Positions 11,001 to 24,692 of a stretch of DNA of 32,000 nucleotides are shown here, piece after piece. Origin of the DNA: Phycisphaera mikurensis NBRC 102666 (GTDB lineage Bacteria; Planctomycetota; Phycisphaerae; Phycisphaerales; Phycisphaeraceae); assembly GCF_000284115.1 (NCBI RefSeq), contig NC_017080.1, positions 570,001 through 602,000 on the forward strand, in the 5' to 3' direction. Position 1 is the first letter of the stretch; every line of letters starts with the position of its first letter. Below the pieces are notes generated by a model, which ran no database searches, was not told the origin of the DNA, and saw only the letters and a program-made list of their open reading frames with translations. The position numbers and the translations under genes are program-made.

Positions 11001-11604
11001 CGTGGTGGACGAACAAACCAACCGCGTCGTGAAGATCGGGGGCGGACCCGGCGGCAGCGGCACCACGCAGGTGGACCTGATCAAGCTCAGGAGCGGGGTG
11101 TCGCCGGAGGTCGGCGACGTCTTGGCGAAAGAAGACATCAAGGGGGTTTACGACATCAAATCATCGGCTTCAGGAAACGTCCCGCGGGCTCAACGATTGA
11201 AGCTCAAGGTCGTGAGCCAGGGTGGTGCCGCTGCCAACCAGGGTGGCGCGGGAGAAGTGAAGGTGACGCGCACCCGGTACCGCTGGACCGCCGGAGGGGG
11301 CTGGACGGAAAATCTAAAAGTCGCTCGTTCGCTGAAGGTGATGTCGGCCTTCGGGCTGACCACCACGGCTTCGGCCTTCGTCCACGCGGACGAGCTCGAC
11401 GCGGAGCTGCTCGACGTGGTCGCCGCGTTCGAGGAAGCCAAGCGGGTGGACCTGACGCAGCGCCCCGGCGTGCTGGCCATCGCGACGGGCAAGTTCGCCA
11501 ACTACCTGAGCCACTTCGACCCGAGCGGCAACGTGCAGGCGCTCTCGCTCGCGGCCTTCCTGCAGGTGCTCAGCAGCGACGCCTTTGAGCGGGGGGACCT
11601 GTGA
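5017..11604 (+). CDS. Giant multidomain exoprotein; candidate polymorphic toxin with a C-terminal PD-(D/E)xK-like nuclease module
   Basis: 2195-aa ORF with the following regions.
- N-terminal LEPLEQRILLS motif (5104-5136).
- LamG/ConA-like domain ending LDDARIYDRGL (about 5167-5817).
- PKD-like WAIDWGDGTSE...HTF (about 5850-6060).
- About 7 delta-60-type repeats, DGK(I/L)VVAG...ARxxxDG(S/T)xDxSFG (about 6150-7240).
- Second LamG-like segment (about 7560-7760).
- Thrombospondin-type-3 Ca-binding repeats: DSDADGDG, DTDGDGLHD, DRDGLPN, DTDGDGVSD (about 8989-9410, with another acidic cluster at 9846-10020).
- Lower-GC C-terminal region (about 10800-11604) containing GNEVH, QVDLIKL and VYDIKSS, which I read as an H...D...(D)xK restriction-endonuclease-fold pattern.
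The toxin call is inference. The CDS itself is solid. Confidence 0.8.
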   Translation: MEPPEPSGEPRPAPRAQLGPPPAARRPADLEPLEQRILLSGTLVSSLKGHWRLDEIAGSTASSGVAAVHATLLADAAFAPAGGRLGGALSLSGSGSAAVVGNVHDPGSGSQTASIWFRRPGGGAIGNDQFLFSKGNRYSTREGWSLNLESSTQEIRFRVNGSDSSAQRASVEADLPQDDRWHHLAAVIDRDAGTLRAYLDGDGSVWRTGGGGPTTRSLASVTHIDTDDPLTLGAVHDGHLLRGNFTGLLDDARIYDRGLGELEIQALASGATRFEPEVTATGSSSTLTAGAPSTLGLHAEHARPDRWAIDWGDGTSEELAGAAASRVHTFAGSGSPQQIAVTAFYGTEAFQAPIRDGGAEADFALGGRAVLDTGSRSWIRDGAVQRDGKLVVAGGPNFTVARFLADGTPDASFGPHGTGVVEIPTAGEGQAVALQRDGKIVVAGGSWFSLARLNLDGSPDTGFGSAGTGVVDDTFGSTFEANDLLIQDDGRIVLAGDGAGDFILARFDPDGRRDHSFGGPGANGRVQTDLYGARDSANAIAAGRDGRLYVTGRTTSAGSSDYDVALAAYSADGGLDRSFGSNGRARADFGDDDEAAFGIDVQPDGRVVVAGRSRVSDANSYDFATARFTAGGFLDASFGGDGTVTTHLGRGYDAAYGVVVLNTGQLLIGGRTSGLGTTNGYDYGVVRLDADGSRDLTFGEGGVSAIDFEGERDDAEALVVGNDGRIFLIGRADGKIGVAATTGFAAPDSGGSFGAGWRLATMKPHHVYGPTGYVGGAHYEHLPIVAEDGVGVARVLAGQSFVLPGDESSALATTGSLDFTAQAGAAAASAGLILAGFAELEGFGDTPKRRLNLRWTPGGGLLLEQGGTEVFRLAGPWADGNLHRFTLAWEGDRVTFFADGAVAASGTLVAATDWASCSPMFGDEKTDQRGTAAAQVIRDVTVGEGSFSVADAAAAVAAASTPLATASREAFIGYEATDGSFSQNFLAQRIISHDAGALADPAEIGRGWIQDGSFTPDVLLPGRPIYQTLLFGDPGSFQKVSTVYTTASVSGRSDANQMVRVSNGWITGEGSMALDLTSKSREIHWGLNVWDHDRYVQHGRFSHYVADGGGAASTNGTHSDLHLGWTDGKRFITSVLQAPAPIFRGHVSMTLGGDHRLTRIVHYHDPAGFVGSAPMTPLAAGLLRDRTGDSVPLSFIDGPEAAPGQTVGYGSVRLADGSSLVGIGLGAYHHPPAQTLGASTALGSGHAQTTSVASVRPTDARPVWMGAAQGGSTEILRLTYDPDDLSSARTHLGTGWIDEAWLKTTDTLNTRHFISANPASRFYLDPDSDADGDGIRLLDERLWWNTNPDSLDTDGDGLHDDYEISYRPVLAGLGGTVNPGAPDAASAYASQSPRTQLRELQVGQGDLFNPLVKDDPKADFDRDGLPNYLESSYGSHPGLSDTDGDGVSDLKEHEQGSSPVDPSDLGLAPPLATKERVSVTVGDPSPSHSEQWALEFNRTTPGGPGSTERVRLMAPDHGLVITEDFWFDVGADYTGVIQHVGSNTDPPDYDWTADVKLATELPPEQADRPRAALTVTEVNNKDEPVLPGGSDFNIDEGKIIVRLRPSVEIDLDVDSDNTAGLYGGPDGTDEEDEHEDAYGDPEHPGKILLANTLDHDRDLIPDYADGFGLDVGMPTADRSTGARFTPLNLEVTGVLELVPEAVLRIDYAASVPLEIQATPSDLFALPQTGNLRLWNLDASTARNGESLLNGGNFVAPGVYSFAELGLRRGASSGQLWLEAVGASDVIGGDRITASVGTLQEDDVAGETFLTLFSDTVGFTAVEVQLEQRNTAGGGWVDANGFLAADLRPFPDGSVPDHFVYRFAVEDPRFEAETITLGNHDLSLSGGSVRYSEEFGVARPGQAGMADSSYLILSAGEVDFSYNPNGSYPVEWVDDVAAADREVAAEVDRAVTDMHGRWAAPAPEPGNSPNPGAFGNEVHRRVSERLQGRPGWLVDVVVDEQTNRVVKIGGGPGGSGTTQVDLIKLRSGVSPEVGDVLAKEDIKGVYDIKSSASGNVPRAQRLKLKVVSQGGAAANQGGAGEVKVTRTRYRWTAGGGWTENLKVARSLKVMSAFGLTTTASAFVHADELDAELLDVVAAFEEAKRVDLTQRPGVLAIATGKFANYLSHFDPSGNVQALSLAAFLQVLSSDAFERGDL

Positions 11605-12212
11605 ACGACGGCCGTCGAAGCTACATCCACTTGTTCTGGGACATCCCCATCCCGGACTGGAAGCGAACCCTGGTCGAGATGGTGCGGGTCGCGGAGCTGG
11701 GGCATCCAAGAGCGGAAGTCCACGCGTGCGAGATCGACGGCTACGACGTGTGGATGCGGGAGGACGAGTTTTACTCCGAGGAAGAACCCCTCGCCATGAT
11801 GCCGCGGTCCGACGTCCGAACGTCGGACGCCCCCCCCCTCCGCGGCTCCCGGCTCATGTACATCGACTTCATTGGGCAAGCCGAGAGAAGACTGCGGCTG
11901 GCGGAGCTGGTGGAGTCTCTACAGGCGCGGATCCCGGAGGAGATCAGCGGCGGCGTCTTCCCGCCCTGGGATCCCTTCGTCAAGATCGGCCGCCACACCG
12001 TCTGGCAGCGACTCGGCGAGCAACCCAACGGCACGTTCGGGCCGCTCCTGCACGGGCGGCCGACGCTGTCGCTGTCCATCTCGGGTGACAACGGGCCCAA
12101 GCGCCAGGACGAGTACCGAAAACTCGTGCTCAGCGATCCCGTTCTCGCTGCACTCCGCGGCGACCTCGAGGTGAAGTTCGGCCCTTCGCAGGTCGTGATG
12201 TTCTGGGATTGA
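11601..12212 (+). CDS. Hypothetical protein; candidate cognate immunity protein of the upstream C-terminal module
   Basis: 203-aa ORF. Its GTG start (11601) overlaps the giant gene's TGA (11602-11604), a GTGA 4-nt overlap indicating translational coupling. It has no signal peptide, no family I recognise, and lower GC, like the adjacent C-terminal module. Confidence 0.6.
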   Translation: MNDGRRSYIHLFWDIPIPDWKRTLVEMVRVAELGHPRAEVHACEIDGYDVWMREDEFYSEEEPLAMMPRSDVRTSDAPPLRGSRLMYIDFIGQAERRLRLAELVESLQARIPEEISGGVFPPWDPFVKIGRHTVWQRLGEQPNGTFGPLLHGRPTLSLSISGDNGPKRQDEYRKLVLSDPVLAALRGDLEVKFGPSQVVMFWD

Positions 12213-12237
12213 ATCCCAAGCTCTCATGAGGCCGCTT

Positions 12238-12347
12238 TCTCAAGGGAGCGGAAAAGGTGACAGCCACGGCCCGCCGGGGCCTGGGCTGAATGCCGTTGCG
12301 GGGGCGGAAAAGGGGGCGAATGGCGGGGCGGAAAAGGTGACAGCCAC
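12238..12347. repeat. Left boundary repeats: TCTCAAG...GCGGAAAAGGTGACAGCCAC (twice, direct) interspersed with GCCGGGGCCTGGGCT
   Basis: GCGGAAAAGGTGACAGCCAC occurs at 12248-12267 and 12328-12347. Its reverse complement occurs at 20256-20291. TCTCAAG at 12238-12244 matches CTTGAGA at 20306-20312. Confidence 0.7.
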
Positions 12348-12501
12348 GAATGGGGCTCGCCGGGGCCTGGGCTCGCCGGGCTCGCCGGGCTCGCCGGGGC
12401 CTGGCCACCTCGCAGGAGGCGTTGCTTCTTCCGGACGGTTTCTGTACGGTCCTCCTGCCGGGTCGCGTGACCCGCTCCCTCGCTCCTTCCGGAGGCTCCC
12501 T

Positions 12502-13503
12502 GTGCCGCGCCGCAACCGCTGCCTGATCGTCGACCCCGACCTCCCGCAGGCGTGGCACGTCAGCAACCGCTGCGCGAGGTCTCTGTTCCTGCTGGAGCCC
12601 GAGGCACAAGACCGCGGGGATCGGGAGCCGGAGGACCACCGCAAGGAGCTGCTGCTGGCGAGGCTGGAGAAGCTGGCGGCGGTCAGCTCCATCGAGGTGC
12701 TGGCCTTCAGCGTCGTGGGCAACCACCTGCACCTGGTCCTGCGCAACGTGCCCAAGGTCGGCCACGCCTGGTCGCCGCAGGAGGTGCTGGACCGCTGGCT
12801 GGCGCTGCACCCGCTGCGGAACCGCCAGGGCCCGCGGGAGCCCGAGGCCGGCGAGCTGGAGGCGCTGGTGGCCGACGAAGCGTGGGTTGCCGCCACGAGG
12901 CGGAAGCTGATGGACCTCTCGCAGTTCATGAAAGAGCTCAAGCAGCACGTGGCGGTGAAGGTGAACAAGCTCGAGAGCGGCAGCGGCGCCTTCTGGAGCG
13001 GTCGGTACAAGAGCAAGCCGATCGACGATCCCGAGGGTCACCAGCTGGTGCGTTCGATGGTGTACGTGGACCTGAACCCCCTGGCGGCGGGGCTGTGCGA
13101 TCGACCCGAGGACGGCCGCCACACCTCGCTGGAGGGGCGGCTGGGGCGGGACGGACCGGCCACGTCGGCCGGTGATCCTCTCGAGCGGGCACCCAGCGCC
13201 GCCTTCCGCCGCTCCCGCAGCGCCTCGTGGCTGGTGCCGCTGGTGGGCGAGGATCCCAGGTCGCGGATGCACGAAGCCGCCCGTGCCGCATCGGCGGCCG
13301 TGCCCGCTGCAGGCCGCACCGTCTTGGCCGGTCTGACCCTACGTCGGTACCTGCGTGTGGTGGACGCCGTTTCGCGTCTCTTGCGTGCAGGCAAGGCCTC
13401 GCTGGACCGCCGGCTGGCACCGATCCTCGAGCGTGTGGGCCTGGGCCCGGAGGACCTCCGCGTCGGCTTCACGCGTATGGCCACCGGCTCGCCGCACTTC
13501 TGA
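12502..13503 (+). CDS. HUH (Y1) transposase, IS200/IS605 TnpA-like / REP-associated tyrosine transposase (RAYT)-like, copy 1
   Basis: Motifs are WHVSNRCARSLFLL, the HUH motif GNHLHLVLR, FWSGRYKSKPI and VYVDLNPLAAGL (the tyrosine / Y-x-x-x-NP region). The start is placed at GTG 12502, preceded by GGAGG at 12491-12495. Sequence upstream of that is repeat DNA, and it differs between the copies further 5'. Confidence 0.8.
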   Translation: MPRRNRCLIVDPDLPQAWHVSNRCARSLFLLEPEAQDRGDREPEDHRKELLLARLEKLAAVSSIEVLAFSVVGNHLHLVLRNVPKVGHAWSPQEVLDRWLALHPLRNRQGPREPEAGELEALVADEAWVAATRRKLMDLSQFMKELKQHVAVKVNKLESGSGAFWSGRYKSKPIDDPEGHQLVRSMVYVDLNPLAAGLCDRPEDGRHTSLEGRLGRDGPATSAGDPLERAPSAAFRRSRSASWLVPLVGEDPRSRMHEAARAASAAVPAAGRTVLAGLTLRRYLRVVDAVSRLLRAGKASLDRRLAPILERVGLGPEDLRVGFTRMATGSPHF

Positions 13504-13700
13504 CGCCAGCGGATCCGGGTTCCAGCGTCCCCGGCCGGTAGGCTGGCGGGTGTGTCATGCGCCACGCCAGCGGCATCACCCAACGCGAGAGCCGCGCGGG
13601 CTCGCAAACGGCTGGCGCTTGCCCGCGAGGACGCGGGAGGCCGCGCAACCTGCCCGAGCGGTCCGATCCGCGTCGAATGTGGAGGGGGCACCCGGACAGG
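13504..13700 (+). repeat. Conserved right-end (RE) segment, copy 1, with nested hairpins
   Basis: CGCCAGC...GCTGGCG stems at 13504-13549 and 13565-13617. There is an inner palindrome GAGCCGCGCGGGCTC and a CCCGCG-AGGA-CGCGGG hairpin. The segment is near-identical at 15127-15320 and 16945-17160. Confidence 0.75.
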
Positions 13701-13995
13701 GTCTAGGCCCCGGCAGACACCCGGCAGACACCCGGCAGACACCGGCAGACACCGGCAGACACAGACAGACGGTGTCCAGGCCCCGGCAGATCCAGACGGT
13801 GTCCAGGCCCCGGCAGATCCCCGGCAGATCCGGCAGATCCAGACGGTGTCCAGGCCCCGGCAGATCCCGGCAGATCCAGACGGTGTCCAGGCCCCGGCAG
13901 ATCCGGCAGATCCGATCGGCAGATCCCAGGCCCCGGCAGATCCCGTGTCCAGGCCCCGGCAGCCCCCCAGACGGTGTCCAGGCCCCGGCAGATCC
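13701..13995. repeat. REP-like / microsatellite array A
   Basis: About 8 copies of (GACGGTGTC)CAGGCCCCGGCAGATCC, interleaved with 9-11-nt units (CCGGCAGACAC, CCGGCAGATC). Confidence 0.85.
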
Positions 13996-14121
13996 ACCTG
14001 GTCGCCGGGCTCGCCGGGGCCTGGCCAGCTCACAGGAGGCGTTGCTTCTTCCGGACGGTTTCTGTACGGTCCTCCTGCCGGGTCGCGTGACCCGCTCCCT
14101 CGCTCCTTCCGGAGGCTCCCT

Positions 14122-15126
14122 GTGCCGCGCCGCAACCGCTGCCTGATCGTCGACCCCGACCTCCCGCAGGCGTGGCACGTCAGCAACCGCTGCGCGAGGT
14201 CTCTGTTCCTGCTGGAGCCCGGAGCCCAAGACCGCGGGGATCGCGAGCCGGAGGACCACCGCAAGGAGCTGCTGCTGGCGAGGCTGGAGAAGCTGGCGGC
14301 GGTCAGCTCCATCGAGGTGCTGGCCTTCAGCGTCATGGGCAACCACCTGCACCTGGTCCTGCGCAACGTGCCCGAGGTCGGCCACGCCTGGTCGCCGCGG
14401 GAGGTGCTGGACCGCTGGCTCGCCCTGCACCCGCTGCGGAACCGCCAGGGCCCGCGGGAGCCCGAGCCCGGCGAGCTGGAGGCGCTGGTGGCCGACAAAG
14501 GGTGGGTCGCCGCCACGAGGCGGAAGCTGATGGACCTCTCGCAGTTCATGAAAGAGCTCAAGCAGCACGTGGCCGTGGCCGTCAACAAGCTCGAGAGCGG
14601 CAGCGGCGCCTTCTGGAGCGGTCGGTACAAGAGCAAGCCGATCGACGATCCCGAGGGTCACCAGCTGGTGCGTTCGATGGTGTACGTGGACCTGAACCCC
14701 CTGGCGGCGGGGCTGTGCGATCGACCCGAGGACGGCCGGCACACCTCGCTGGAGGGGCGGCTGGGGCGGGACCAGCCAGCAACCCCGCAGCAAGCCGAGC
14801 CCGCCGAGCGGGCACCCACCGCCGCCTTCCGCCGCTCCCGCAGCGCCTCGTGGCTGGTGCCGCTGGCGGGCGAGGATCCCAGGTCGCGGATGCACGAAGC
14901 CGCCCGTGCCGCATCGGCGGCCGTGCCCGCTGCAGGCCGCACCGTCTTGGCCGGTCTGACCCTGCGTCGGTACCTGCGTGTGGTGGACGCCGTGTCGCGT
15001 CTCCTGCGTTCGGGCAAGGCCTCGCTGGACCGCCGTCTCGCGCCGATCCTCGAGCGTGTGGGCCTGGGCCCGGAGGACCTCCGCGTCGGCTTCGCGCGGA
15101 TGGCCACCGGCTCGCCGCACTTCTGA
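14122..15126 (+). CDS. HUH (Y1) transposase, IS200/RAYT-like, copy 2
   Basis: Same motifs as copy 1 (GNHLHLVLR, FWSGRYKSKPI, VYVDLNPLAAGL), with scattered substitutions and one short indel region (GRDQPATPQQAEPAE versus GRDGPATSAGDPLE). GTG 14122 is homologous to 12502. Both copies are intact. Confidence 0.8.
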   Translation: MPRRNRCLIVDPDLPQAWHVSNRCARSLFLLEPGAQDRGDREPEDHRKELLLARLEKLAAVSSIEVLAFSVMGNHLHLVLRNVPEVGHAWSPREVLDRWLALHPLRNRQGPREPEPGELEALVADKGWVAATRRKLMDLSQFMKELKQHVAVAVNKLESGSGAFWSGRYKSKPIDDPEGHQLVRSMVYVDLNPLAAGLCDRPEDGRHTSLEGRLGRDQPATPQQAEPAERAPTAAFRRSRSASWLVPLAGEDPRSRMHEAARAASAAVPAAGRTVLAGLTLRRYLRVVDAVSRLLRSGKASLDRRLAPILERVGLGPEDLRVGFARMATGSPHF

Positions 15127-15292
15127 CGCCAGCGGATCCAGGTTCCAGCGTCCCCGGCCGGTAGGCTGGCGGGTGTGTCATGCGCCACGCCAGCGGCATC
15201 ACCCAACGCGAGAGCCGCGCGGGCTCGCGAACGGCTGGCGCTTGCCCGCGAGGACGCGGGAGGCCGCGCAGGATGCTCCGAGCGGTCCGATC

Positions 15293-15447
15293 CGCGTCGG
15301 ATGTGGAGGGGGCACCCGGACGGTGTCCAGGCCCCGGCAGATCCCGCGTCGGATGTGGAGGGGGCACCCGGACGGTGTCCAGGCCCCGGCAGATCCCCGG
15401 CAGATCCCGGCAGATCCGGCAGATCCGGCAGATCCCGGCAGATCCGG
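15293..15447. repeat. REP-like / microsatellite array B, including a perfect 52-nt tandem duplication
   Basis: The unit CGCGTCGGATGTGGAGGGGGCACCCGGACGGTGTCCAGGCCCCGGCAGATCC occurs at 15293-15344 and 15345-15396. About 5 units of C(C)(C)GGCAGATC follow. Confidence 0.85.
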
Positions 15448-15641
15448 ATGGGTTTCACGGAATCTTGATCGACATCCTTCCTGAGTCCCCGGCCGTACCG
15501 TTCAGCAAAGCACAAGTCAAGGATGGTCTTCGCGAGGCGTATCGAAGATGGGCACATAAGGAAAGTACTCCATTCAATGAGTCTGAAGGAGCGAGATTGG
15601 CGGACGTACTCGATGCCTTTATCGACCGACTGCCAGATTGA
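15447..15641 (+). pseudogene. Start-less C-terminal gene fragment (orphan toxin-tip candidate 1)
   Basis: GC drops to about 50% (121/240 by hand count over 15481-15720). The frame reads ...ILIDILPESPAVPFSKAQVKDGLREAYRRWAHKESTPFNESEGARLADVLDAFIDRLPD*. It stops 4 nt before the ATG of the next ORF and has no start codon of its own after the repeat junction. Confidence 0.45.
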
Positions 15642-15645
15642 TCGT

Positions 15646-16533
15646 ATGCCTGTCCACATAAAGATCACTGTCTTTGAGCATTCCATAGGCTCGGAACATT
15701 TTGCAGAACTCTGCAAAGCTTATCCAGAGAATTTGCTGCCCTCCGGGCTATTTCGGATTACCCGAGAGCCGACGGATGCGAGAATGGTCCAAGTCCAAAA
15801 GCACCTCGCAGAATACGGGCTCAGACCTGCGCAAATGGGAGAGTCTTCTGGTGACGATGTTTATTGGGCCGACCCCGTGTCAGTCCCGACGCCCAAACAG
15901 CTTGCGGAAGCCGAGTGGTTCTCAATTGAGAACATGCTTGCAACCCGCGGCGACCGACTGCACAACGAGGAACTCGAATGGAAGGTGGAAGAGTGCGAAG
16001 ATGAAGGCGATCGTGAACACTGGCAAGAAACTCCGGTCCACGGCTGCTACGGCGCCGCCATCATGGTGACGGAGCAGATCGCGGAGGTGATCCGCGGCTG
16101 GGAAGCGCCCGAGCTGCGGGTGCAGCCGGTCCACTATCACACGCGCGACTGGTCCTCGAACACCAAGGTGCCCATGGAGTGGCGGGAGGCGGGGCTCGAG
16201 CCGCGGTTCTCCGTCGCCAGCCGGCTCACGCTGCCGCTGATGTCGGAGACCTGTCAGCCGGTCCACCGCCGCAGGGGCACGCCCCTGCCGCGAGGTTCGG
16301 ACGAGCCCGCGGCCATGCGACGACCCGAGGGCGAAGAGCAGTTCTGGTGCTACAAGCAGTCGGAGGTGGAGCAAATGCCTCCGTTCGACCTGGCCATGAC
16401 CCACGAGCGCCTAGGAAACTCTTCTCGAGCTCCACTGAACCACGGGCTGGTCTTCTCGAGACGCCTCACCGAACTGCTCAGCAGCGAAGACCCCAACATC
16501 ACCTGGTGGCCGGTGATGTTCGAGGACGAGTAG
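15646..16533 (+). CDS. Hypothetical protein; candidate orphan immunity protein 1
   Basis: Begins ATG 15646 (MPVHIKITVFEHS...). About 295 aa, acidic, no signal peptide. It contains two segments ending in a pattern seen in some immunity families (AIMVTEQIAEVIRGWEAPELRVQPV and LVFSRRLTELLSSEDPNITWWPV); that family resemblance is weak. The ORF track's 15523 start would overlap the preceding fragment. Confidence 0.6.
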   Translation: MPVHIKITVFEHSIGSEHFAELCKAYPENLLPSGLFRITREPTDARMVQVQKHLAEYGLRPAQMGESSGDDVYWADPVSVPTPKQLAEAEWFSIENMLATRGDRLHNEELEWKVEECEDEGDREHWQETPVHGCYGAAIMVTEQIAEVIRGWEAPELRVQPVHYHTRDWSSNTKVPMEWREAGLEPRFSVASRLTLPLMSETCQPVHRRRGTPLPRGSDEPAAMRRPEGEEQFWCYKQSEVEQMPPFDLAMTHERLGNSSRAPLNHGLVFSRRLTELLSSEDPNITWWPVMFEDE

Positions 16534-16584
16534 CGCTACCACGCGAGAAGGTGGACGCCGGGAGACGCCGGGGCCTAAACACCG

Positions 16585-16735
16585 GGGCGGAAAAGGCGGA
16601 AGGGCGGAGCGGAAAATGAGCGGAAAAGATGCCGGCCACCAAACCCACACGACCGCTCTGATCAGCGCACGCTCGGCTTTGCCGGGGCCTGGCCACCGCG
16701 GTTCGGGGGTTCGGGGGCCTGGCCACCGCGGGTCG
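16585..16735. repeat. GCGGAAAAG motif cluster followed by two REP-like units
   Basis: GCGGAAAAGG, GCGGAAAATG and GCGGAAAAGA occur at 16586-16630. GCCGGGGCCTGGCCACCGCGG occurs twice at 16681-16733. This is the same motif order seen after the first immunity candidate (12246-12410). Confidence 0.7.
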
Positions 16736-16944
16736 CGGCCGTGCCCGCTGCAGGCCGCACCGTCCTGGCCGGTCTGACCCTGCGTCGGTACCTGCGTTCG
16801 GTGGACGCCGTTTCGCGTCTCTTGCGTGCAGGCAAGGCCTCGCTGGACCGCCGTCTCGCGCCGATCTTCGAGCGTGTGGGCCTGGGCCCGGAGGACCTCC
16901 GCGTCGGCTTCACGCGTATGGCCACCGGCTCGCCGCACTTCTGA
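16735..16944 (+). pseudogene. 3' remnant of a third IS200/RAYT-like transposase copy
   Basis: Encodes ...AVPAAGRTVLAGLTLRRYLRSVDAVSRLLRAGKASLDRRLAPIFERVGLGPEDLRVGFTRMATGSPHF*, matching the last 68 aa or so of copies 1 and 2. The REP unit is joined directly to internal transposase sequence, consistent with an internal deletion. Confidence 0.8.
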
Positions 16945-17174
16945 CGCCAGCGGATCCAGGTTCCAGCGTCCCCGGCCGGTAGGCTGGCGGGTGTGTCATG
17001 CGCCACGCCAGCGGCATCACCCAACGCGAGAGCCGCGCGGGCTCGCAAACGGCTGGCGCTTGCCCGCGAGGACGCGGGAGGCCGCGGGAGGCCGCGCAGG
17101 ATGCTCCGAGCGGTCCGATCCGCGTCGGATGTGGAGGGGGCACCCGGACGGTGTCCAGGCCCCGGCAGATCCCC
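16945..17174 (+). repeat. Conserved right-end (RE) segment, copy 3
   Basis: Near-identical to 13504-13700 and 15127-15344. It carries a 10-nt tandem duplication (GGGAGGCCGC twice, 17076-17095) and ends GGCCCCGGCAGATCCCC at the junction with orphan tip 2. Confidence 0.8.
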
Positions 17175-17588
17175 GCCTTCGTCCGATTCGTTAATCGCGC
17201 CGACTTCGAAGCCGGCAGCAACGCTCGCCTCGTCCCGGCCGCCGACGGCAGCGGCCGCCAGACGATCGTCCTCGGGACCGCGCAGGCCACGGGCGAGACC
17301 GCTACGCACGCCAATCAGGTCAACGCGATCGCGCAGCAGCTGGCCGAGTCCGGCGATTGGGCGCACATCTCCCTTGACCGCAACTACCGAACGGCGACGG
17401 GGCGGGTTTTCGACCCGAAAGTTGCCAATCCGCTGAATGGCAACCAAATGGTTTCGCCTCGGCCGGACATCGTTGCGGTGGGGCGGGATGGGAGGATGCA
17501 GGTGTTCGAGGTGCAGTCCGAGGGGCAGAACTTCGATCAGTTGGCCGAATACGTCAGAAGGCAGGAGGCCGCCGCCGTCCACGATTGA
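17175..17588 (+). pseudogene. Start-less C-terminal module with a PD-(D/E)xK-type nuclease motif (orphan toxin-tip candidate 2)
   Basis: Reads AFVRFVNRADFEAG...THANQVNAIAQQLAESGDWAHISLDRNYRTATGRV...SPRPDIVAVGRDGRMQVFEVQSEGQ...*. RPD-(x13)-E-V-Q-S is the classic restriction-endonuclease-fold core. There is no start codon of its own; the only in-frame ATG is inside the RE at 16998. Confidence 0.5.
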
Positions 17589-18622
17589 CCGGGGACCACC
17601 GTCACGTTCCGGACCATCGAAGCCGGAGGCTCGTTGTGATACTCGCTGACATCCAGCAGGATCCAGAGGGCCTTGCATACTTCCAGACGGTCAGCGATTG
17701 CGTGTTGGAGCCATGCAACGGCTGTGATCTTCGTTCAGTCTTCACTTGGGCGATGACGCTCAAGCCGATGGACGAGGTGCCTATCACGCAGGTTGCCGGG
17801 TCTGGAAAGAACATCCCGCGGAACAAGGTGGCGCCGTACCGGCGCGGGAAAGGTCAGCTGCCGACGGAATCGGATCATGAATTCCAGGGCGTCAGCGCGG
17901 CGCATCAGCTTCGCACTTCCGGTTATCAGCAAACGGATGCCGGGTTCTACCTCTCGCTCGATCGCGTCGATAAGTTCGGCTACGCTTGGCCAGATGGAGC
18001 GTATCTCCGCCTCAAGCTGCTGATCGACTGCGAGGAATACGCAATCCCTTTCGTCGAACATGTCGCAGAGTTCCTGCACGGCCCGTTCTCCGGTCAGATC
18101 CGACGGGGCAGTGTCTTTCGCATGTCGCGGTTTGCTGGACCCACCGGTTACCTGATCGGGGTCGGAACGGGCTTCGTGCCGAGTTCCACGCGTCCTCGGC
18201 ACAACGATCGGTTGCTTGAGGGTTACTTCAACAACCGAAGCGGCGGCGTCTCAAATCATGCTCCGCACCAGGTCATCCGCGAGGTCTACCCCGTCAACCT
18301 TTTGCCCAACGAGGTGCTGACGATGCCCTGGGGCAAGACGGCCCGGACGCTGGGCGAGGCACTGAAGGAACACCCCGGGACGGCCCGCTTCGAGCGGTAC
18401 AACGACCACTGCTGGCGCTGGGAGCCGCACTGGGAGGCGATCGAGACGCTGCGGGTCGACCTGTTCCGGGCCGGCCGGCTGTGGTACCAGAAGATGGACG
18501 CGTGGCAGCAGCCGGACTGGCACCGCCCCGACTGGTCGGCGCCGTACGAGTACACCGGCGAGCTGCCGGACTTCGTGAAGCCCGGCTGGTCGGACTTCTG
18601 GGCCCACGGGTACACGCCGTGA
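17585..18622 (+). CDS. Hypothetical protein; candidate orphan immunity protein 2
   Basis: The ORF begins at a TTG overlapping the preceding TGA (TTGA, 17585-17588). An alternative GTG lies at 17636. GC is about 59% over 17641-17880 by hand count. The third-codon-position G/C bias favours this frame over the antisense ORF at 17735-18202. The C-terminal half is Trp-rich (WRWEPHWEAIETL...WYQKMDAWQQPDWHRPDW). No family recognised. Confidence 0.6.
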   Translation: MTGDHRHVPDHRSRRLVVILADIQQDPEGLAYFQTVSDCVLEPCNGCDLRSVFTWAMTLKPMDEVPITQVAGSGKNIPRNKVAPYRRGKGQLPTESDHEFQGVSAAHQLRTSGYQQTDAGFYLSLDRVDKFGYAWPDGAYLRLKLLIDCEEYAIPFVEHVAEFLHGPFSGQIRRGSVFRMSRFAGPTGYLIGVGTGFVPSSTRPRHNDRLLEGYFNNRSGGVSNHAPHQVIREVYPVNLLPNEVLTMPWGKTARTLGEALKEHPGTARFERYNDHCWRWEPHWEAIETLRVDLFRAGRLWYQKMDAWQQPDWHRPDWSAPYEYTGELPDFVKPGWSDFWAHGYTP

Positions 18623-18704
18623 GAAGCACAACAGATCCACCATGCGACCGTTGGCTGCGCCCGCTGCGGGCGATGCTCCCAGCGACCAGGAACCTCGCGG
18701 AATG

Positions 18705-18887
18705 GGCCCCGGCAGCGCCAGGCCCCGGCAGCGCGGGCAGCGGTATCCAGGCCCCGGCAGCCCCCGGCAGCCCCGGCAGCCCCCGTGAATGGGCTTTGCC
18801 GGGGCCTGGCCACCGCGGTTCGGGGCCTGGCCACCGCGGTTCCGGGGCCTGGCCACCGCGGTTCCCGGGGCCTGGCCACCGCGGTTC
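18705..18887. repeat. Head-to-head REP cluster (array D)
   Basis: Positions 18705-18780 carry GGCCCCGGCAG(C) units in right-end orientation. Positions 18797-18887 carry four tandem 21-23-nt units, GGGGCCTGGCCACCGCGGTTC(C)(C), in left-end orientation. The cores CCAGGCCCCGG and CCGGGGCCTGG are reverse complements. Confidence 0.85.
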
Positions 18888-18950
18888 CACTTGCAAGATA
18901 CCCACTGCCTCGACCGCCACAACCCCGCCCTCACCGGCCTCACCGGCCTC

Positions 18951-20114
18951 ATGGACCTGCTGACCCAGCACGGCACCGACGCCATGGCCCAGGCCTTCGC
19001 CGCCACACTCAACATCGCCATGCGGCTCGAGCGTGAGCAACACCTCGGTGCCGCCGAGCACGAACGGTCGGCGGATCGCACCGGCTACGCCAACGGCTTC
19101 TCACCCAAGCAGCTGGACACGCCTGCCGGACGCGTCACCGTCGCCGTGCCCAAGACCCGACCGGTCCCCGGCCGCGGCGGGAGCTTCGAGCCCTTCTTCC
19201 CGCAAGCTCTGCAACGTGGCAGCCGCGCCTGCCGGGCCGTCAACGCCACGCTGGCCCAGATGTACGTCCAGGGCGTCTCCACCCGCGACGTCAAAGCCGT
19301 CATGGCCGAACTGGGCCTCGAGAACGTGACCTCCGCCCAGGTCAGCCGGGCCACCGCGGAACTGGACGAAGAGCTTCGTGCCTGGCGAGAGCGGCCCTTG
19401 GGCACCGTCGAGCGGCTGATCCTCGACGCCCGCTACGAGAAGGTCCGCGAAGGCGGAATCGTCCGCGACGTGGCCGTGCTCACCGCCGTGGGCGTCCTGC
19501 CCAACGGCTCCCGCTCGGTGCTGGGCGTCTCGGTGGCCCTCTCCGAGGCGGAGGTTCACTGGCGAGCGTTCCTCGACTCGCTGGTGGCTCGCGGCATGCG
19601 GGGCGTGGAGCTTGTCACCAGCGACGACCACGCCGGGCTGGCCGAAGCCCGGAAGGCCGTGCTGCCAGCGGTGCCGTGGCAGCGGTGCCAGTTCCATCTG
19701 GCCAACAACGCGATCCACCACGCACCCACGGCCGCCACACGCGAGAAGATCGGCAAGCAGCTCGGCCAAGTCTGGAACGCGCCCGCTCGGGCCGAGGCCG
19801 ACCGCCGGCTTGCCGACCTGATCGACGAGCACGAGCCAAAGAGCCCGCGGCTGGCGAAGTGGCTCGGCAAGAACGTGCCCGAAGGCCTCACCGTCTTCGC
19901 CTTCCCGCCGGCGCAGCGGAAGAAGCTTCGGACCTCCAACGGCATCGAGCGGCCGATCCAGCAGGAGCTCAAGCGTCGGACCCGCAAGATCCGCGTGTTC
20001 CCCAACGCCGAGTCGTTGCTTCGGCTGTGCTCGGCCTTGCTGGTCGAGATCGACGACGATTGGCAGGCCTCCACCCGCCGCTACCTGCCCGCTTCCGAGG
20101 AGGTGGCCCGCTGA
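18951..20114 (+). CDS. IS256-family (Mutator-type) transposase
   Basis: Contains MDLLTQHG...LNIAMRLEREQHLGA..ERSADRTGYANGF..KQLDTPAGRVTVAVPKTR, then ILDARYEKVRE, ...LVTSDDHAGL..A......WQRCQFHL...N, and ...SNGIERPIQQELKRRTRKIRVFPN. These are typical IS256 transposase blocks with DDE residues. ATG 18951 was chosen because the upstream part of the track ORF is translated REP DNA. Confidence 0.9.
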   Translation: MDLLTQHGTDAMAQAFAATLNIAMRLEREQHLGAAEHERSADRTGYANGFSPKQLDTPAGRVTVAVPKTRPVPGRGGSFEPFFPQALQRGSRACRAVNATLAQMYVQGVSTRDVKAVMAELGLENVTSAQVSRATAELDEELRAWRERPLGTVERLILDARYEKVREGGIVRDVAVLTAVGVLPNGSRSVLGVSVALSEAEVHWRAFLDSLVARGMRGVELVTSDDHAGLAEARKAVLPAVPWQRCQFHLANNAIHHAPTAATREKIGKQLGQVWNAPARAEADRRLADLIDEHEPKSPRLAKWLGKNVPEGLTVFAFPPAQRKKLRTSNGIERPIQQELKRRTRKIRVFPNAESLLRLCSALLVEIDDDWQASTRRYLPASEEVAR

Positions 20115-20255: not shown

Positions 20256-20312
20256 GTGGCTGTCACCTTTCCCGGCCCTGTCACCTTTCCCGGCCCCGGT
20301 GCAAGCTTGAGA
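20256..20312. repeat. Right boundary repeats: inverted copies of GGAAAGGTGACAG(CCAC), twice, plus CTTGAGA
   Basis: GTGGCTGTCACCTTTCCCGGCCCTGTCACCTTTCCCGGCC at 20256-20291 is the reverse complement of the 12248-12267 / 12328-12347 motif, with one A fewer. CTTGAGA at 20306-20312 mirrors TCTCAAG at 12238-12244. Confidence 0.7.
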
Positions 20313-20346: not shown

Positions 20347-21027
20347 TCATCCCGATCGGTCCTCGCCGTCTGCGGACGCGGACGCCGAGATCTCCTTCTC
20401 CGTCACCCCGAGCCACTCGAGCATGTGCTGCTCGTACACGTCCTGGTGCTCGGGGTTGGAGAAGTCCAGCCGCAGCTCGTTGATCACCTTGGTGCCCTGG
20501 CCGATCCACTGGGTCCAGGTGACCTGCCCGAAGTTCTCCACGATGTACTCGCCGATCGGGCCCCGCATGGGCGGGCCGTCGAGCCGGGGCTGGGGCTGGC
20601 CCGTCCGCTTGTCGAGCACCTGCGTCCCGCCGCTCTCCGCCTGCAGCGCGGCGGCCTTCTCCGCCGCGGACTCGACCTCGGGGATCGGCGCCCCCAGCCG
20701 CTTTAGCCGCTCTCCCATCGCGCGCATCGGCATCACGTCGCCGCGGCCGGCCGCGATGGCGTAGCCGCGGGTGAGGGTGTCGGTCGCCTCGGCCTCCTGC
20801 CCGAGCTTGAGCTGCGCCTCGCCGAGGTGCTGCAACGCCCGGGACATGTCCGGGTTGTGCACGAGGGCTTCCTTGTACGCGTCCGCCGCCTCCGCGTGCC
20901 GGCCCACCGCGCGGTAGGCCTCACCCAGCGAGAAGAAGGCCATGTCGTCGGGCGCCTCCTCCGCCATGCGCTGCCACTGGGCGATGCGGGCTTCGGCGGC
21001 TTCGTCGGCGGTCGCTTCGGTGCTCAT
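20347..21027 (-). CDS. TPR-repeat protein fused to a YggX-like (Fe(II)-trafficking / oxidative-damage protection) domain
   Basis: The N-terminal half has TPR-like helices (FFSLGEAYRAVGRHAEAADAYKEALVHNPDMSRALQHLGEAQLKLG). The C-terminus, GPIGEYIVENFGQVTWTQWIGQGTKVINELRLDFSNPEHQDVYEQHMLEWL, aligns by eye with E. coli YggX ([51 protein letters not shown]). Confidence 0.8.
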   Translation of the reverse strand: MSTEATADEAAEARIAQWQRMAEEAPDDMAFFSLGEAYRAVGRHAEAADAYKEALVHNPDMSRALQHLGEAQLKLGQEAEATDTLTRGYAIAAGRGDVMPMRAMGERLKRLGAPIPEVESAAEKAAALQAESGGTQVLDKRTGQPQPRLDGPPMRGPIGEYIVENFGQVTWTQWIGQGTKVINELRLDFSNPEHQDVYEQHMLEWLGVTEKEISASASADGEDRSG

Positions 21028-21054
21028 GCGGCGAGCGTACGCGCGGCGGGGGCC

Positions 21055-21651
21055 TCAACCGAAGCGGAAGGTCGGCGGGTCGCCCGGTCCGCAGCGGCCC
21101 CCCTCGATGAGCAGCGCGAGGTACCCGCGCGGCTCGCGCGGCGCGTCGCGGAGGCCCAGGCGGGCCAGCGTGGCCTCCACCGCGTCCGGGTCGGGCCCCT
21201 CGACCTCGACGAAGAAGCCCAGGCCCGGCAGCTCGTCGATCTCGACAACGCAGCCGCCGAGGCGGTGCCGGTCGCGGCGCTTCTCGAAGCGGAAGCGGGG
21301 GGCGTAGCCCAGGGCGGCAAGGAAGGCGGCGGCGCCGTCGGCGTCGGCAACCACGATCTCGTGCTCGGGGCGGCGCTTCAGGCCGTCGGCGGCGCCGCCG
21401 GCGCCGGGGAGGCGGGGCCCCTTGTGGCAGAGCACGTGGCGCGGGGGGCCGGCGTGGGGGCTCCCGGCGCGTGGGGTCTCGGTCCGCAGGCGGAGGGCGC
21501 GGTCGGCGCCGCGGAGGCGGTCGCCGGGGAGGTCGAAGAAGCGGTTGTCCTCGGTGAAGGCGGCGGCGAGCGGCGCGTCGAGCGCCGCCAGCCGCCGGCG
21601 GAGGCCTTCGGGATCGGCGAGCGGGAGCTTGGCTTCGGTCTCGATCGGCAT
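21055..21651 (-). CDS. CYTH-domain protein (class IV adenylate cyclase CyaB / triphosphatase family)
   Basis: Begins MPIETEAKLPL (the ExExK signature). Later ...ALRLR..., RRPEHEIVV, FEKRRDR and VVEIDELPGLGFFVEVE are present, matching the typical CYTH fold sequence. Confidence 0.8.
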   Translation of the reverse strand: MPIETEAKLPLADPEGLRRRLAALDAPLAAAFTEDNRFFDLPGDRLRGADRALRLRTETPRAGSPHAGPPRHVLCHKGPRLPGAGGAADGLKRRPEHEIVVADADGAAAFLAALGYAPRFRFEKRRDRHRLGGCVVEIDELPGLGFFVEVEGPDPDAVEATLARLGLRDAPREPRGYLALLIEGGRCGPGDPPTFRFG

Positions 21652-21657
21652 GGCGGG

Positions 21658-22233
21658 TCAGCGTGCCGGCGGCTCGGGAAGCCTGGCGGACGGGCGTGGG
21701 TCGCGGGCGCGCGTGCGGCGGTCCGGCGGCGGGGCGGCCGGGGGCGCCGGCGCGTCGGGGGCTGGCGGGTCGGGGCGGCCCTCGGCGAAGAGCTCGCGCT
21801 GCAGCCGCGACACGCCGCGGAGCACGCGGCGGCGGCGGCCGACCGGCCGGCCCGCGGCGTACTGCCGGCCGTGGTGGTAGAGCGTCCCGGAGGCGGCGAG
21901 CAGCGGCAGCGGGTTGGCCAGGCCCGTGCCCCGCGCCACGCGGTACAGCAAGAGCCGGCCGGGCCAGCCCACCCCGCGGGCGTGGCAGATGGACCGGAAC
22001 ACCGACCACCAGGCGTCGGGCGCGGCCGCGGAGGCGCTGCCGCCCGGCGCTCGGAGGCCGGCGCGGCGGGCGAGGGAACGCAGGGCGACGATCGCCAGCA
22101 CGAGCCCGGCGGCGATCAGCAGCGGCGCCAGCGGCACCGAGCGGGTTGCGGTGGCCGCGCGGCCGACGTCCTCGAGGCCGCCGGGCGTCTGGAGCAGGCG
22201 GGCCGCGAGGATGAGGGGCACCGAGCCGTTCAC
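21658..22233 (-). CDS. Hypothetical membrane protein
   Basis: The GTG start at 22233 overlaps the upstream gene's TGA (GTGA). Two hydrophobic segments are present (VPLILAARLL, LAPLLIAAGLVLAIVAL), followed by WWSVFRSICHARGVGWPGRLLLYRVA. It forms the tail of the track ORF 21658..22923. Confidence 0.55.
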   Translation of the reverse strand: MNGSVPLILAARLLQTPGGLEDVGRAATATRSVPLAPLLIAAGLVLAIVALRSLARRAGLRAPGGSASAAAPDAWWSVFRSICHARGVGWPGRLLLYRVARGTGLANPLPLLAASGTLYHHGRQYAAGRPVGRRRRVLRGVSRLQRELFAEGRPDPPAPDAPAPPAAPPPDRRTRARDPRPSARLPEPPAR

Positions 22234-23777
22234 GAGGCGAGCGCTCCGGGCATGCGCGGGAGGCGGAGCGCCGGCGGCGGGTCGCCCGCGTCGGGCAGCC
22301 GCGCCTCCAGGGCGGCCCAGGCCTCGTCCGCGGCCTCCACCCGGCCAAGCGGCGGGGCGGACCCCGCCGGCGTCCGCATCGCGGCCGCAAGCGCCACCAG
22401 CGCCCGGCGCCGGGCCGGCGTCGCGTCCGCGGCGGGGGCCAGGCGCGCCCGCAGGGCTCGCTCCCCCCCGGGCCGGGCCCGGCAGTCGGCCAGCGCTCGC
22501 GCGCGGGCCGGGCCGTCGAGTCGGTCCAGCTCCGCGAGGAGCCGCTGGGCGGCTTCCGCGGCCTCGGCGTCCTCCGCGGCGGCCCGAACCGCGGGATCGG
22601 CGGCGGCGTGCAGCGCCGCGAGGTGGGGGCCGCGGCGGGCCTCGGGCGCGGCGGCCACCACGCGCGCCGCCAGCCGCGCCTCGGGTGTCGCGGCGCTCGC
22701 GGCCAGCGCCGCGGCGGCGGCGAGCAGCGCCGGATCGCCGGCTTCGGCGAGGTCCCGCACCACCAGCTTCAGCGCGGCGGCGCGGACCGCGGGCTCGGGA
22801 TCGGCCAGCGCCAGCGCCACCCACCGCGACCGCGTCGCGGGGGGCAGCGGCAGTGCGGCGACGAGATCCACGAGGCAGCGCCGCTCCGTCGGCGAGGCTT
22901 CGGCCGGCCAGGCCCGCGGGCACAGCGAGCCGGGTTCGGCGGCCGCCGCGAGCGCGGCGGCGACGGCGGGCTCGGAGAGCAGGGCGGGCTGGGGGAAGAC
23001 GCCGCGCAGCGGCCGCTCGCGGGCGGCGCGGGCCAGCCCCGCGAGCGCCGCGGACCGCAGCGGCTCCACCGCCAGCAGAGGCAGCAGAGCCCCGCGCTCC
23101 GCCGCGCCGCCGGCCGCGGCGACCCGCCGGCGCAGGGGCGGCAGCGCCCCGTGCGAGGGCTCGGCAAAGGCGGCCTCGCAGAGCGGCGACGGCTCGCCCG
23201 CGAGCAGGAGGAAGGCCGTGAGCAGGCCTCCGTGCCCCTCAACCGGGCCGCCGGCGCCGCGGGGAGCGGGTCGGCCCCAGGCGGCGACGGCGGGGTCGAC
23301 GGCCGCCGCGAGCGTGGCCGCCTCGGTGGAGCCCGGGGCGGCGTCGCCCGCAAGGCTCACCAGCACGGCGGCGGCCTCGTCGGCGAGGTCGGGCCGCGGC
23401 AGGCTCGTCGCGTCCACCACGAGGTAGGCCAAGTGGCAGAGCCGCCGCTCCGCGATCAGCCGCAGCGCATTCCGGGTGGCGTCGGTTCCGGCGCCGAAGG
23501 CCCGGCGCACCGCCGCGTCGAGGGCGTGGTCGGGCACGGCGTAGACCCGCTCCGCCGCCCGCGGCCCCAGCCGGTGCAGGTGCCGGACCAGCGCGAGGCG
23601 GCCCCCGCCCTCCCCACGCCGGAGCAGCGCCGCGACCATCGCCTCGTGCTCCCGCGTGGCCGCGGTGGGCAACGCCGCCGCGAGCGCCGCCGACGCCGCC
23701 GGGCCGGGCGTCGCGGCGAGCAACGCGGCCGCCGTCGGGCGTTCGGCGGGGTCGGCGGCGGGGGTCCGGGGGCGCAT
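22230..23777 (-). CDS. Ala/Leu-rich HEAT/ARM-like repeat protein (hypothetical)
   Basis: 515-aa ORF, first gene of the minus-strand operon. It has repeated helical D-P-x-V-R-A-A-A-like segments (ADPEPAVRAAALKLV, AADPAVRAAAEDA). No catalytic motif recognised. Confidence 0.6.
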   Translation of the reverse strand: MRPRTPAADPAERPTAAALLAATPGPAASAALAAALPTAATREHEAMVAALLRRGEGGGRLALVRHLHRLGPRAAERVYAVPDHALDAAVRRAFGAGTDATRNALRLIAERRLCHLAYLVVDATSLPRPDLADEAAAVLVSLAGDAAPGSTEAATLAAAVDPAVAAWGRPAPRGAGGPVEGHGGLLTAFLLLAGEPSPLCEAAFAEPSHGALPPLRRRVAAAGGAAERGALLPLLAVEPLRSAALAGLARAARERPLRGVFPQPALLSEPAVAAALAAAAEPGSLCPRAWPAEASPTERRCLVDLVAALPLPPATRSRWVALALADPEPAVRAAALKLVVRDLAEAGDPALLAAAAALAASAATPEARLAARVVAAAPEARRGPHLAALHAAADPAVRAAAEDAEAAEAAQRLLAELDRLDGPARARALADCRARPGGERALRARLAPAADATPARRRALVALAAAMRTPAGSAPPLGRVEAADEAWAALEARLPDAGDPPPALRLPRMPGALAS

Positions 23778-24146
23778 GGGGCTCGGCGGCTATCGGCCCA
23801 ATCCGGGCGTCTGCTCGATCGGCGGGCCTCTGCTCCACGCCGCGGCGGCTCCCAACGCCGCGTTTGGGGGGGTTCCATTCGTCGGAAACTTGCACTAAAC
23901 TCCGTCGCATCCCGCGAGGGTGAACCGGGGTCCCGAGCCCGCCGTACCGGCGGCGGGGACGCCCCCGAGCCCCTTGCTCCCCGCTCCTCGCCCCGTCCGT
24001 CGAGTCCGCCCCCGCGCTTCCCGGGCCACGGTCGCCACTTTCGTCGCCCGCCGCCCCGCCGGGCCCGCCGCGCTCCGCCCCCGCCTCCCGCCCGACGGGC
24101 GGCGGAATCCCCCCCACCCCCCAGCCGCCGCGTCGCGGCCTCCGCC

Positions 24147-24692
24147 ATGAGCACCTCCAGCAAAACCGCCTCCGCCCCGCTGTTGCGGATGATGATCTAC
24201 AGCCGCCCGCTCCACCCCGAGCTCTTCCGGATCGAGGGGCGCCGTTCGGTGCAGCACGGCGGCTTCAAGGCAGAGCTGTGGCTGACCGCCGGCGGCCACG
24301 TCGCCCGCTTCCAAGCGCTGGGCCGGCAGCTGGCCGAGGTCGTCATCGACGGGGGCGAGGGTTTGCCCGAGAGCGGCCTGGTCCACGCCCTGCCGGCGAT
24401 CGGGGAGAAGGACTACGAGATGCCCGCGAGCGAGCCGCTGGGGTTCGTCACGACCGTGCAGACCGAGACGCTCAGCGACAACCTCTACCAGGGGACGCTC
24501 CGCGAGATGACCGACTTCGCCCGCGAGGTCGGTGCGCTCTCCTACGCCTACACCGACGCGGCGGGGCGGGACTCGCTTTCGCTGATCGATTGCCAGAAGT
24601 ACAAGCGGGAGCTGCACCTCCAGGCGTACCACCTGCTCGGCGGCTCCGGCGTGGTGCTGCGGACGCAGTCCATCTTCGAGATGCACGCCTGA
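24147..24692 (+). CDS. Conserved hypothetical protein (resembles the DUF2617 type)
   Basis: Starts at ATG 24147: MSTSSKTASAPLLRMMIYSRPLHPELFRIEG.... It forms the tail of a much longer spurious track ORF (22608..24692). The family assignment is from memory of the YxRxLHPELF N-terminal pattern and is tentative. Confidence 0.65.
   Translation: MSTSSKTASAPLLRMMIYSRPLHPELFRIEGRRSVQHGGFKAELWLTAGGHVARFQALGRQLAEVVIDGGEGLPESGLVHALPAIGEKDYEMPASEPLGFVTTVQTETLSDNLYQGTLREMTDFAREVGALSYAYTDAAGRDSLSLIDCQKYKRELHLQAYHLLGGSGVVLRTQSIFEMHA

Follow-up and report, generated by a model that had tools for sequence, protein, structure and literature searches.

A predicted array of orphan toxin tips and immunity genes adjoining REP/RAYT-like elements in Phycisphaera mikurensis

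Introduction

Polymorphic toxin systems include orphan rhs-CT/rhsI and cdiA-CT/cdiI modules that lie downstream of the Rhs and CdiA genes (Zhang et al. 2012, PMC3482391). Does a planctomycete of the class Phycisphaerae carry modules of this kind, and how might they have lost their 5′ parts? We address this question for a 32,000-nucleotide stretch of the Phycisphaera mikurensis NBRC 102666 genome (assembly GCF_000284115.1, contig NC_017080.1, positions 570,001 to 602,000, forward strand) – hereafter the window, whose own numbering is used throughout. Two gene tails in the window, tail 1 and tail 2, each follow a copy of a repeat, and each is coupled to a longer open reading frame (ORF): tail 1 to ORF295 (together cassette 1) and tail 2 to ORF345 (together cassette 2). 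An earlier sequence-only reading had taken both pairs for start-less orphan toxin/immunity cassettes, akin to those downstream of cdiA and rhs genes. Our search of the literature on toxins in P. mikurensis found none.

The evidence below makes it likely that the region from 11.6 to 18.6 kb is an array of polymorphic-toxin C-terminal-domain/immunity cassettes. Homology identifies cassette 2 as a predicted displaced, or ‘orphan’, toxin/immunity module. Cassette 1 appears to be what remains of another module of this type, cut shorter, with a 64-codon 3′ end and an intact partner gene; the conserved gene pair is evident, and its toxin/immunity nature is suggested by context.

Results

Tail 2 is a predicted polymorphic-toxin C-terminal domain

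Both tails are genuine coding sequence and not chance ORFs. Tail 2, in frame from 17175 to the TGA at 17586–17588, has a GC content by codon position of 0.69/0.46/0.82, and a family hidden Markov model (HMM) built without it matches 17196–17564 (i-E 7.5e-31) and nowhere else in the six frames of the window. Tail 1, whose frame extends from 15447 to a TGA at 15639–15641, differs from its homologue on a 1,154-bp metagenomic contig (L009) by 19/17/37 at the three codon positions, with 13 synonymous codon changes and no conservation in the other frames.

An exhaustive HMMER search identified 49 relatives of tail 2. Most of the matches lie at the far C-terminal end of proteins 300 to 3,400 residues long, stopping 20–45 residues short of the terminus, and the carriers include proteins with RHS repeats (P0008), PT-HINT (P0030) and RTX repeats (P0003, P0004, P0007, P0012, P0028). 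At a Gemmataceae locus (L006) the domain sits on an RHS protein of more than 2,100 residues, directly after the end of the DPLGL core. Eight positions are invariant in a 34-sequence alignment of the family – H45, G60, T73, P97, D98, G106, E112 and S115 – and each is retained in tail 2. No Pfam or NCBIfam model matches the domain, and a tblastn search against plasmids gave no match for it. These homologies assign tail 2 to the C-terminal domains of polymorphic toxins, as the exchangeable tip of what elsewhere are RHS, PT-HINT and RTX-type secreted proteins. The sequence-only reading’s view of the tails as C-termini of larger proteins therefore holds for tail 2, whereas for tail 1 no parent emerged.

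The homology begins at residue ~3–5 of tail 2, at the repeat junction. A second locus shows the same boundary: on contig Ga0498938_0000020 (L012, 3319–8338) two orphan copies lie behind a full 637-residue toxin of the same C-terminal family (E 2e-15), and one of them starts at the N-terminal boundary of tail 2 with ‘MAVLRRNM’. Taken together, the two observations indicate that tail 2 is N-terminally complete and includes no pre-toxin part. Its 3′ end differs from the aligned homologues in lacking their last ~20 family positions (...SLPxxxRGxxxVIPP; 17540–17588), which points to possible decay. A frameshift concealing these residues was considered and rejected: the six-frame HMM search finds 17196–17564 alone and no remnant of the segment.

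Other loci also hold orphan arrays of the family, in line with the orphan interpretation. Besides L012, an Aliidongia sp. locus (L003, 2225–7234) repeats a toxin/immunity unit of the cassette 2 families in tandem, the copies being almost identical, and L010 has an orphan-like copy with upstream in-frame stops. The second immunity copy of the Aliidongia array is split by a frameshift (6387–6932 and 6929–7234).

ORF345 is the predicted cognate immunity gene of tail 2

In Fontivita pretiosa, a 323-residue ORF overlaps (ATGA) the stop codon of a toxin with a tail 2-type C-terminal domain, and residues 44–332 of ORF345 align to that ORF (BLASTP, E 9e-11). ORF345-family genes lie 3′ of the toxin domain in L002, L003, L004, L006, L010 and L011, with an ATGA or TTGA overlap or a gap of ~10 nt; these pairs come from Fontivita, Aliidongia, two Planctomycetia genomes (the Gemmataceae RHS locus is in one) and a further two contigs from metagenomes. 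Because the family stands directly downstream of the same toxin domain in six other loci, ORF345 is predicted to be the cognate immunity gene, and the immunity role suggested for it by the sequence-only reading is borne out. Conservation extends over the whole length of the family alignment, with an LRDVYPWNFL motif and 21 invariant columns; the family is in neither Pfam nor NCBIfam.

Cassette 2 is joined as first described, with TTG 17585 opening ORF345 in a TTGA overlap with the tail 2 stop. The same overlap occurs in L003 and L006, where the N-termini are also alike (MTxxxRxVxDxxS), which makes TTG 17585 a credible start. Gene calls in GCA_014207395.1 place a 114-residue minus-strand gene and a 136-residue plus-strand gene where ORF345 lies. 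The family profile aligns collinearly to the disputed N-terminal 209 residues of ORF345 (E 0.0057). The minus-strand ORF at 17735–18202, which scores E 0.53 against that profile and is unlike the minus-strand neighbour in L012, is rejected as a real gene. ORF345 is thus one plus-strand gene, and the split calls are likely a mis-annotation due to an antisense ORF with second codon positions in common.

The GC content at third codon positions rises within both putative immunity genes, from 0.61 to 0.86 in ORF295 and from 0.70 to 0.93 in ORF345; the ORF295 homologue on L009 is, by eye, also AT-richer toward its 5′ end.

The tail 2 fold is probably restriction-endonuclease-like

The sequence-only reading had seen a PD-ExQ/K nuclease core in tail 2. 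Its motif, RPDIVAV...VFEVQS, is there. No family member departs from P97, D98, E112 or S115, whereas residue 114, the ‘Q/K’ of the motif, varies (Q in tail 2); the nuclease assignment is not significant. An AlphaFold2 model of tail 2 built with the alignment reached a pLDDT of 87 and has an alpha/beta core (helices 43–59 and 120–134; strands 62–67, 99–103 and 108–111). Pfam Hjc is touched by one of the 34 family members (E 0.015). Zhang et al. (2012, PMC3482391) tabulated ten Tox-REase motifs (Tox-REase-1 to -10), and the tail 2 signature – H45, T73, S115 and an RTATGR motif – fits none of the ten. We consider the fold to be probably restriction-endonuclease-like, although this is unproven.

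Tail 1 and ORF295 are conserved together at close spacing

On L009 an ORF295 homologue has a further ORF just before it, and over 39 residues (E 1e-15) the end of that ORF shares 56% identity with tail 1. ORF295, annotated as a hypothetical protein (P0050), is 49% identical to its L009 homologue (P0051), which starts 5 nt past the stop codon of the tail 1 homologue. This is the same tight coupling as in the window, where ATG 15646 follows the tail 1 stop after the 4-nt gap first reported. The N-terminus of P0051 backs this start (MPVH and MPLH). Neither tail 1 nor ORF295 has a Pfam or NCBIfam match or a structure assignment, and a tblastn search against plasmids found no ORF295 match. With 64 codons, tail 1 is probably no more than part of a domain. 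The GC content of cassette 1 is 0.52–0.55.

ORF295 and ORF345 were also compared as candidate paralogues. They have in common a YPxNLL motif alone, at a non-significant E of 0.076–0.39, and the relationship was rejected.

Both tails abut the right end of a REP/RAYT-like element

REP-associated tyrosine transposases (RAYTs) are IS200/IS605-like Y1 HUH enzymes. Both tails start exactly after ...CCGGCAGATCC, the right end of a REP/RAYT-like repeat. The sequence-only reading spoke of a repeat junction and missed that a REP/RAYT-like mobile element, itself carrying in-frame start codons, has its right end there. By self-BLASTN, 12382–13717 is 95.5% identical to 14002–15341, giving two ~1.6-kb copies (A and B) at about 12226–15446, and copy B ends in a GGCAGATCC tandem run abutting tail 1. 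The shortened copy C (16735–17173) is 95% identical to 14917–15345 and retains a 67-residue RAYT C-terminal remnant (16741–16944), REP matches at 16679 (−) and 17155 (+), and a GGAAAAGATGCCGGCCAC motif at 16622.

The RAYT-like ORF scores below the cut-off of both Pfam Y1_Tnp (E 7e-4; 20 bits, cut-off 23) and NCBIfam REP_Tyr_transpos (E 1.6e-9; 37.8 bits, cut-off 80). Over the HUH region it aligns with a canonical RAYT-like ORF of a Planctomycetia metagenome-assembled genome (L004; E 2e-7), and short repeats in inverted orientation flank it. The REP core CCAGGCCCCGGCAG has 16 matches in the window, against 0.12 expected, and all fall within 12271–18809; they include 12271 and 16679 on the minus strand and 13703–13991, 15327, 15379 and 17155 on the plus strand. 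No REP core occurs in the 2195-residue ORF upstream (the candidate ‘main’ gene) or beside its C-terminal boundary. As first noted, the orphans are not preceded by main-gene homology: self-BLASTN of 5017–11604 against the sequence upstream of both tails found none.

Other repeats accompany the element. Microsatellite-like tandem units of 9–10 bp (GGCAGACACC, GGCAGATCC[C]) are interleaved with 27–47-bp REP units at 13715–14000 and 15397–15446, and their copy number at the element right end varies between element copies. An 18-nt motif, GGAAAAGGTGACAGCCAC, has four matches against 0.02 expected: 12250–12267, 12330–12347 (+), 16622–16639 (+, 3 mismatches) and 20256–20273 (−). It occurs just past ORF203 and ORF295 and, inverted, beyond the IS256 copy, and so brackets the whole array from 12.2 to 20.3 kb. 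L004 has locally duplicated RAYT-like genes at 8107–10597, with direct repeats of 51 nt and ~200–300 nt; this duplication lies 1.3 kb downstream of a homologous toxin–immunity pair.

The main gene and ORF203

The GC content of the main gene falls from 0.74 over the first 800 residues to 0.67 over the last 400. Its C-terminal ~250 residues are uncharacterised and contain a QVDLI...YDIKS (D...DxK-like) motif; they resemble neither the tail 2 family nor tail 1, and their single-sequence AlphaFold2 model (pLDDT 48) is too poor for use. P0003 and P0004, the nearest parents of tail 2, were compared with the main protein, and they have no pre-toxin body in common with it.

ORF203, the adjoining gene, has a strong coding signal (GC by codon position 0.68/0.43/0.86) and no family match in Pfam or NCBIfam. 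Its position suggests a putative immunity partner of the main-gene C-terminus. The GTGA-coupled downstream ORF, the GC drop toward the 3′ end and the D...DxK-like motif are hints, short of proof, that the main gene is a toxin carrier.

Layout of the locus

The features of the locus are collected in Table 1. The GC content of the cassettes, 0.52–0.67, is lower than the ~0.74 of the first third of the main gene. Beyond the array, at 21000–24500, the GC content reaches 0.80–0.83, and very long overlapping ORFs occur in several frames on both strands; ORF length alone is accordingly weak evidence in this genome. A sigma-70 promoter and terminator scan found no site, and such a scan is weak and uninformative for this phylum.

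Table 1. Features of the cassette region and its surroundings (window positions)
Feature	Position	Strand	Description
Main ORF, 2195 aa	5017..11604	+	LamG domain and DUF5122 beta-propeller repeats; candidate ‘main’ gene
ORF203 (203 aa)	11601..12212	+	GTG overlaps main-gene stop (GTGA)
Repeat copy A	12226..13720	+	RAYT-like (HUH Y1 transposase-like) ORF 12226-13503; REP-like motifs at both ends
REP-unit array (CCAGGCCCCGGCAG, GGCAGATCC), then repeat copy B	13721..15446	+	RAYT-like ORF 13552-15126
Tail 1	15447..15641	+	64-codon conserved 3′ end of truncated gene; putative toxin remnant
ORF295 (295 aa)	15646..16533	+	Tail 1 partner; putative orphan immunity gene
Repeat copy C, internally deleted	16560..17174	+	Left-end motifs, left-type REPs, last 439 bp of element
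Tail 2	17175..17588	+	Predicted polymorphic-toxin C-terminal domain, N-terminal boundary complete
ORF345 (345 aa)	17585..18622	+	Predicted cognate immunity-family gene of tail 2 toxin domain; TTG start
REP array closing cassette region	18640..18890		Core motif in both orientations
IS256/Mutator-family transposase gene	18789..20114	+	Pfam Transposase_mut E 8.7e-93; at distal end of array

Discussion

Weighing the array

Several observations weigh against reading the region as a toxin/immunity array. No RHS, FHA or pretoxin domain occurs in the main gene, and Pfam and NCBIfam have no match for its C-terminus; the analogy with cdiA and rhs loci is unproven in this respect. Within its family ORF345 diverges most, with best pairwise E-values of 9e-11 to 5e-10 and mostly weak matches to the others. 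The nuclease character of tail 2 draws little from structure or profile comparison: a Foldseek search of its model against the PDB had a best E of 0.46 and returned a few low-probability PD-(D/E)xK nucleases, and a PDB-sequence profile search aligned its PD...E to D42/E55/K57 of archaeal Hjc at a weak E of 0.75. Metagenome scans with the ORF295 and tail 1 families returned no relatives, and no full-length tail 1 parent or toxin family emerged, the only tail 1 homologue being cut off at the end of its contig. Finally, the repeat holds start codons in frame with the tails – GTG 15375 and 17151, ATG 15180 and 16998 – and the tails may be translated from them.

The missing tail 1 parent bears on what cassette 1 is. 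The orphan toxin/immunity interpretation has stood for cassette 2, while cassette 1 is a conserved coupled gene pair; with no full-length parent, the word ‘toxin’ for tail 1 is inferred. Its toxin/immunity nature is nonetheless plausible in view of its place in the array, tight coupling, low GC and shared truncation at the element end. The alternative, which we regard as possible though on the unlikely side, is that cassette 1 is the 3′ remnant of an unrelated two-gene operon, lying between element copies beside a true orphan cassette. The absence of a family, structure or parent assignment for tail 1 and ORF295 favours such an operon, as do the single homologous locus known, truncated as it is, and the lack of any relation between ORF295 and ORF345 apart from the short YPxNLL motif. 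Set against it are the tight, conserved stop–start spacing of 4–5 nt, the low GC, the location of cassette 1 between the giant-protein/ORF203 pair and the toxin–immunity pair identified by homology, and the truncation of tail 1 by the very element end that truncates tail 2.

The in-frame start codons raise a different possibility, that the tails are functional stand-alone genes starting from the element GTG or ATG, which would yield small intracellular toxins with their antidotes, acting as toxin–antitoxin-like addiction modules or cargo effectors that stabilise the locus. We think this improbable. NCBI annotates tail 2 within a 145-residue hypothetical protein (100% identical) that begins at GTG 17151, a GGAGG lies ~14 nt 5′ of that codon, and a short family protein (P0006) starts at the domain boundary with ‘MAVLRRNM’. 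‘Start-less’ accordingly needs a qualifier: no ATG or GTG stands near the 5′ end of either tail past the junction, as the sequence-only reading had said, but in-frame TTGs occur within tail 1 and the annotated start is a repeat GTG. Frame sharing has, however, a one-in-three probability by chance, and the repeat lacks a codon-position signal (0.70/0.74/0.70). A typical toxin domain would not fit in the 64 codons of tail 1, the last ~20 conserved positions are absent from tail 2, and the scan found no promoter-like site, weak as it is for this phylum.

Least likely of all – a long shot in our judgement – is that the REP-bracketed cassettes are units moved or shuffled by the HUH transposase or by REP–REP recombination, in an exchange system that replaces main-gene homology: the cassettes are bracketed by opposite REP cores (15379(+)/16679(−) and 17155(+)/18796(−)), both tails are joined to the same element end, the REP motif is restricted to the array within the 32-kb window and L004 has its RAYT-like duplication 1.3 kb from a homologous toxin–immunity pair, but alternating REPs follow trivially from RAYT elements inserted between cassettes, the absence of a REP at the main-gene C-terminal boundary leaves no obvious route for a tail swap onto the main gene, no start-less tail follows the L004 RAYT copies, and the internally deleted copy and the IS256 insertion look like decay. 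In its fullest and equally remote form, the elements would be an exchange scaffold that captures, shuffles and expresses toxin tips without main-gene homology – an integron-like alternative to Rhs/CdiA recombination, with the element right end supplying an in-frame start codon and perhaps expression signals to cassettes bracketed by inverted REPs.

A possible history of the orphan array

We therefore return to the orphan toxin/immunity array. An orphan classically arises when a new tip takes the place of the old, and some main-gene homology stays behind. The most economical history for the window would be a different one, in which a REP/RAYT-like element inserts and recombination or deletion between its copies then removes the 5′ bodies of the tails; insertion followed by deletion between element copies would leave each tail fused to a defined right end of the element. 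The internally deleted third copy and the IS256 landing at the array end are consistent with a decaying locus.

As to present function, the intact immunity genes would likely protect the cell from kin or competitors that carry the corresponding toxins, whereas the toxin tails, with tail 1 truncated and tail 2 lacking both a native start and its conserved C-terminal ~20 residues, are probably silent or decaying. In the family at large, the ORF345-type gene would be translationally coupled to the toxin through the conserved TTGA/ATGA overlap.

The locus is of a known kind, that of orphan polymorphic-toxin/immunity modules, and its novelty is modest – an uncurated toxin/immunity family pair, and REP/RAYT-like elements in place of main-gene homology at the orphan junctions. 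It extends orphan toxin–immunity arrays to Phycisphaerae, a planctomycete class. The tail 2 toxin family comprises about 50 clusters at 50% identity on RHS, PT-HINT and RTX carriers, and its invariant H, T, PD, G, E and S residues are open to mutagenesis. If the proposed history holds, mobile REP/RAYT-like elements can, besides tip displacement, yield start-less orphan toxin tails.

Comparison with known systems

The window resembles Rhs and CdiA loci in its start-less tips, each with a tightly coupled immunity-like gene, arrayed 3′ of a very large secreted-protein gene. The likeness extends to the tail 2 domain, which occurs on RHS proteins and at L006 has a classical Rhs orphan right past its immunity gene, and to a cassette GC below that of the host genome. 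The window differs in that its orphans have no pretoxin or core homology to the main gene at their 5′ ends and abut the REP/RAYT-like right end instead. Its main gene, a putative toxin carrier, combines LamG with a beta-propeller rather than RHS or FHA repeats.

The closest parallel to cassette 2 is L012, with the shared toxin family and boundary described above. There, however, the orphans keep an ATG at the boundary, and no REP/RAYT element stands at the junctions. The L012 partners are convergent minus-strand genes of 229–237 residues that overlap the toxin 3′ end; they are not of the ORF345 family and form a putative different immunity family, so that this one toxin subfamily has another kind of neighbour.

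Compared with PD-(D/E)xK nucleases and Hjc, tail 2 likewise has its PD...E spread over two neighbouring predicted beta-strands that come after a long helix, and its profile ‘PDiiav..G.v..fEV.S’ recalls ‘PDIIAL..G.I.LIEMKS’ of Hjc. The tail 2 family departs from that superfamily in its variable lysine position and in having no significant Pfam, PDB-sequence or Foldseek match.

The repeat, for its part, shares with REP/RAYT systems an ORF with an HUH motif, flanking inverted short GC-rich repeats and local repeat arrays. Its ORFs fall below the curated family cut-offs, and the presence of two complete copies in tandem and a third with an internal deletion suggests more IS-like behaviour. A further difference from REP/RAYT systems is the position of the window element, which forms the 5′ junction of truncated toxin genes.

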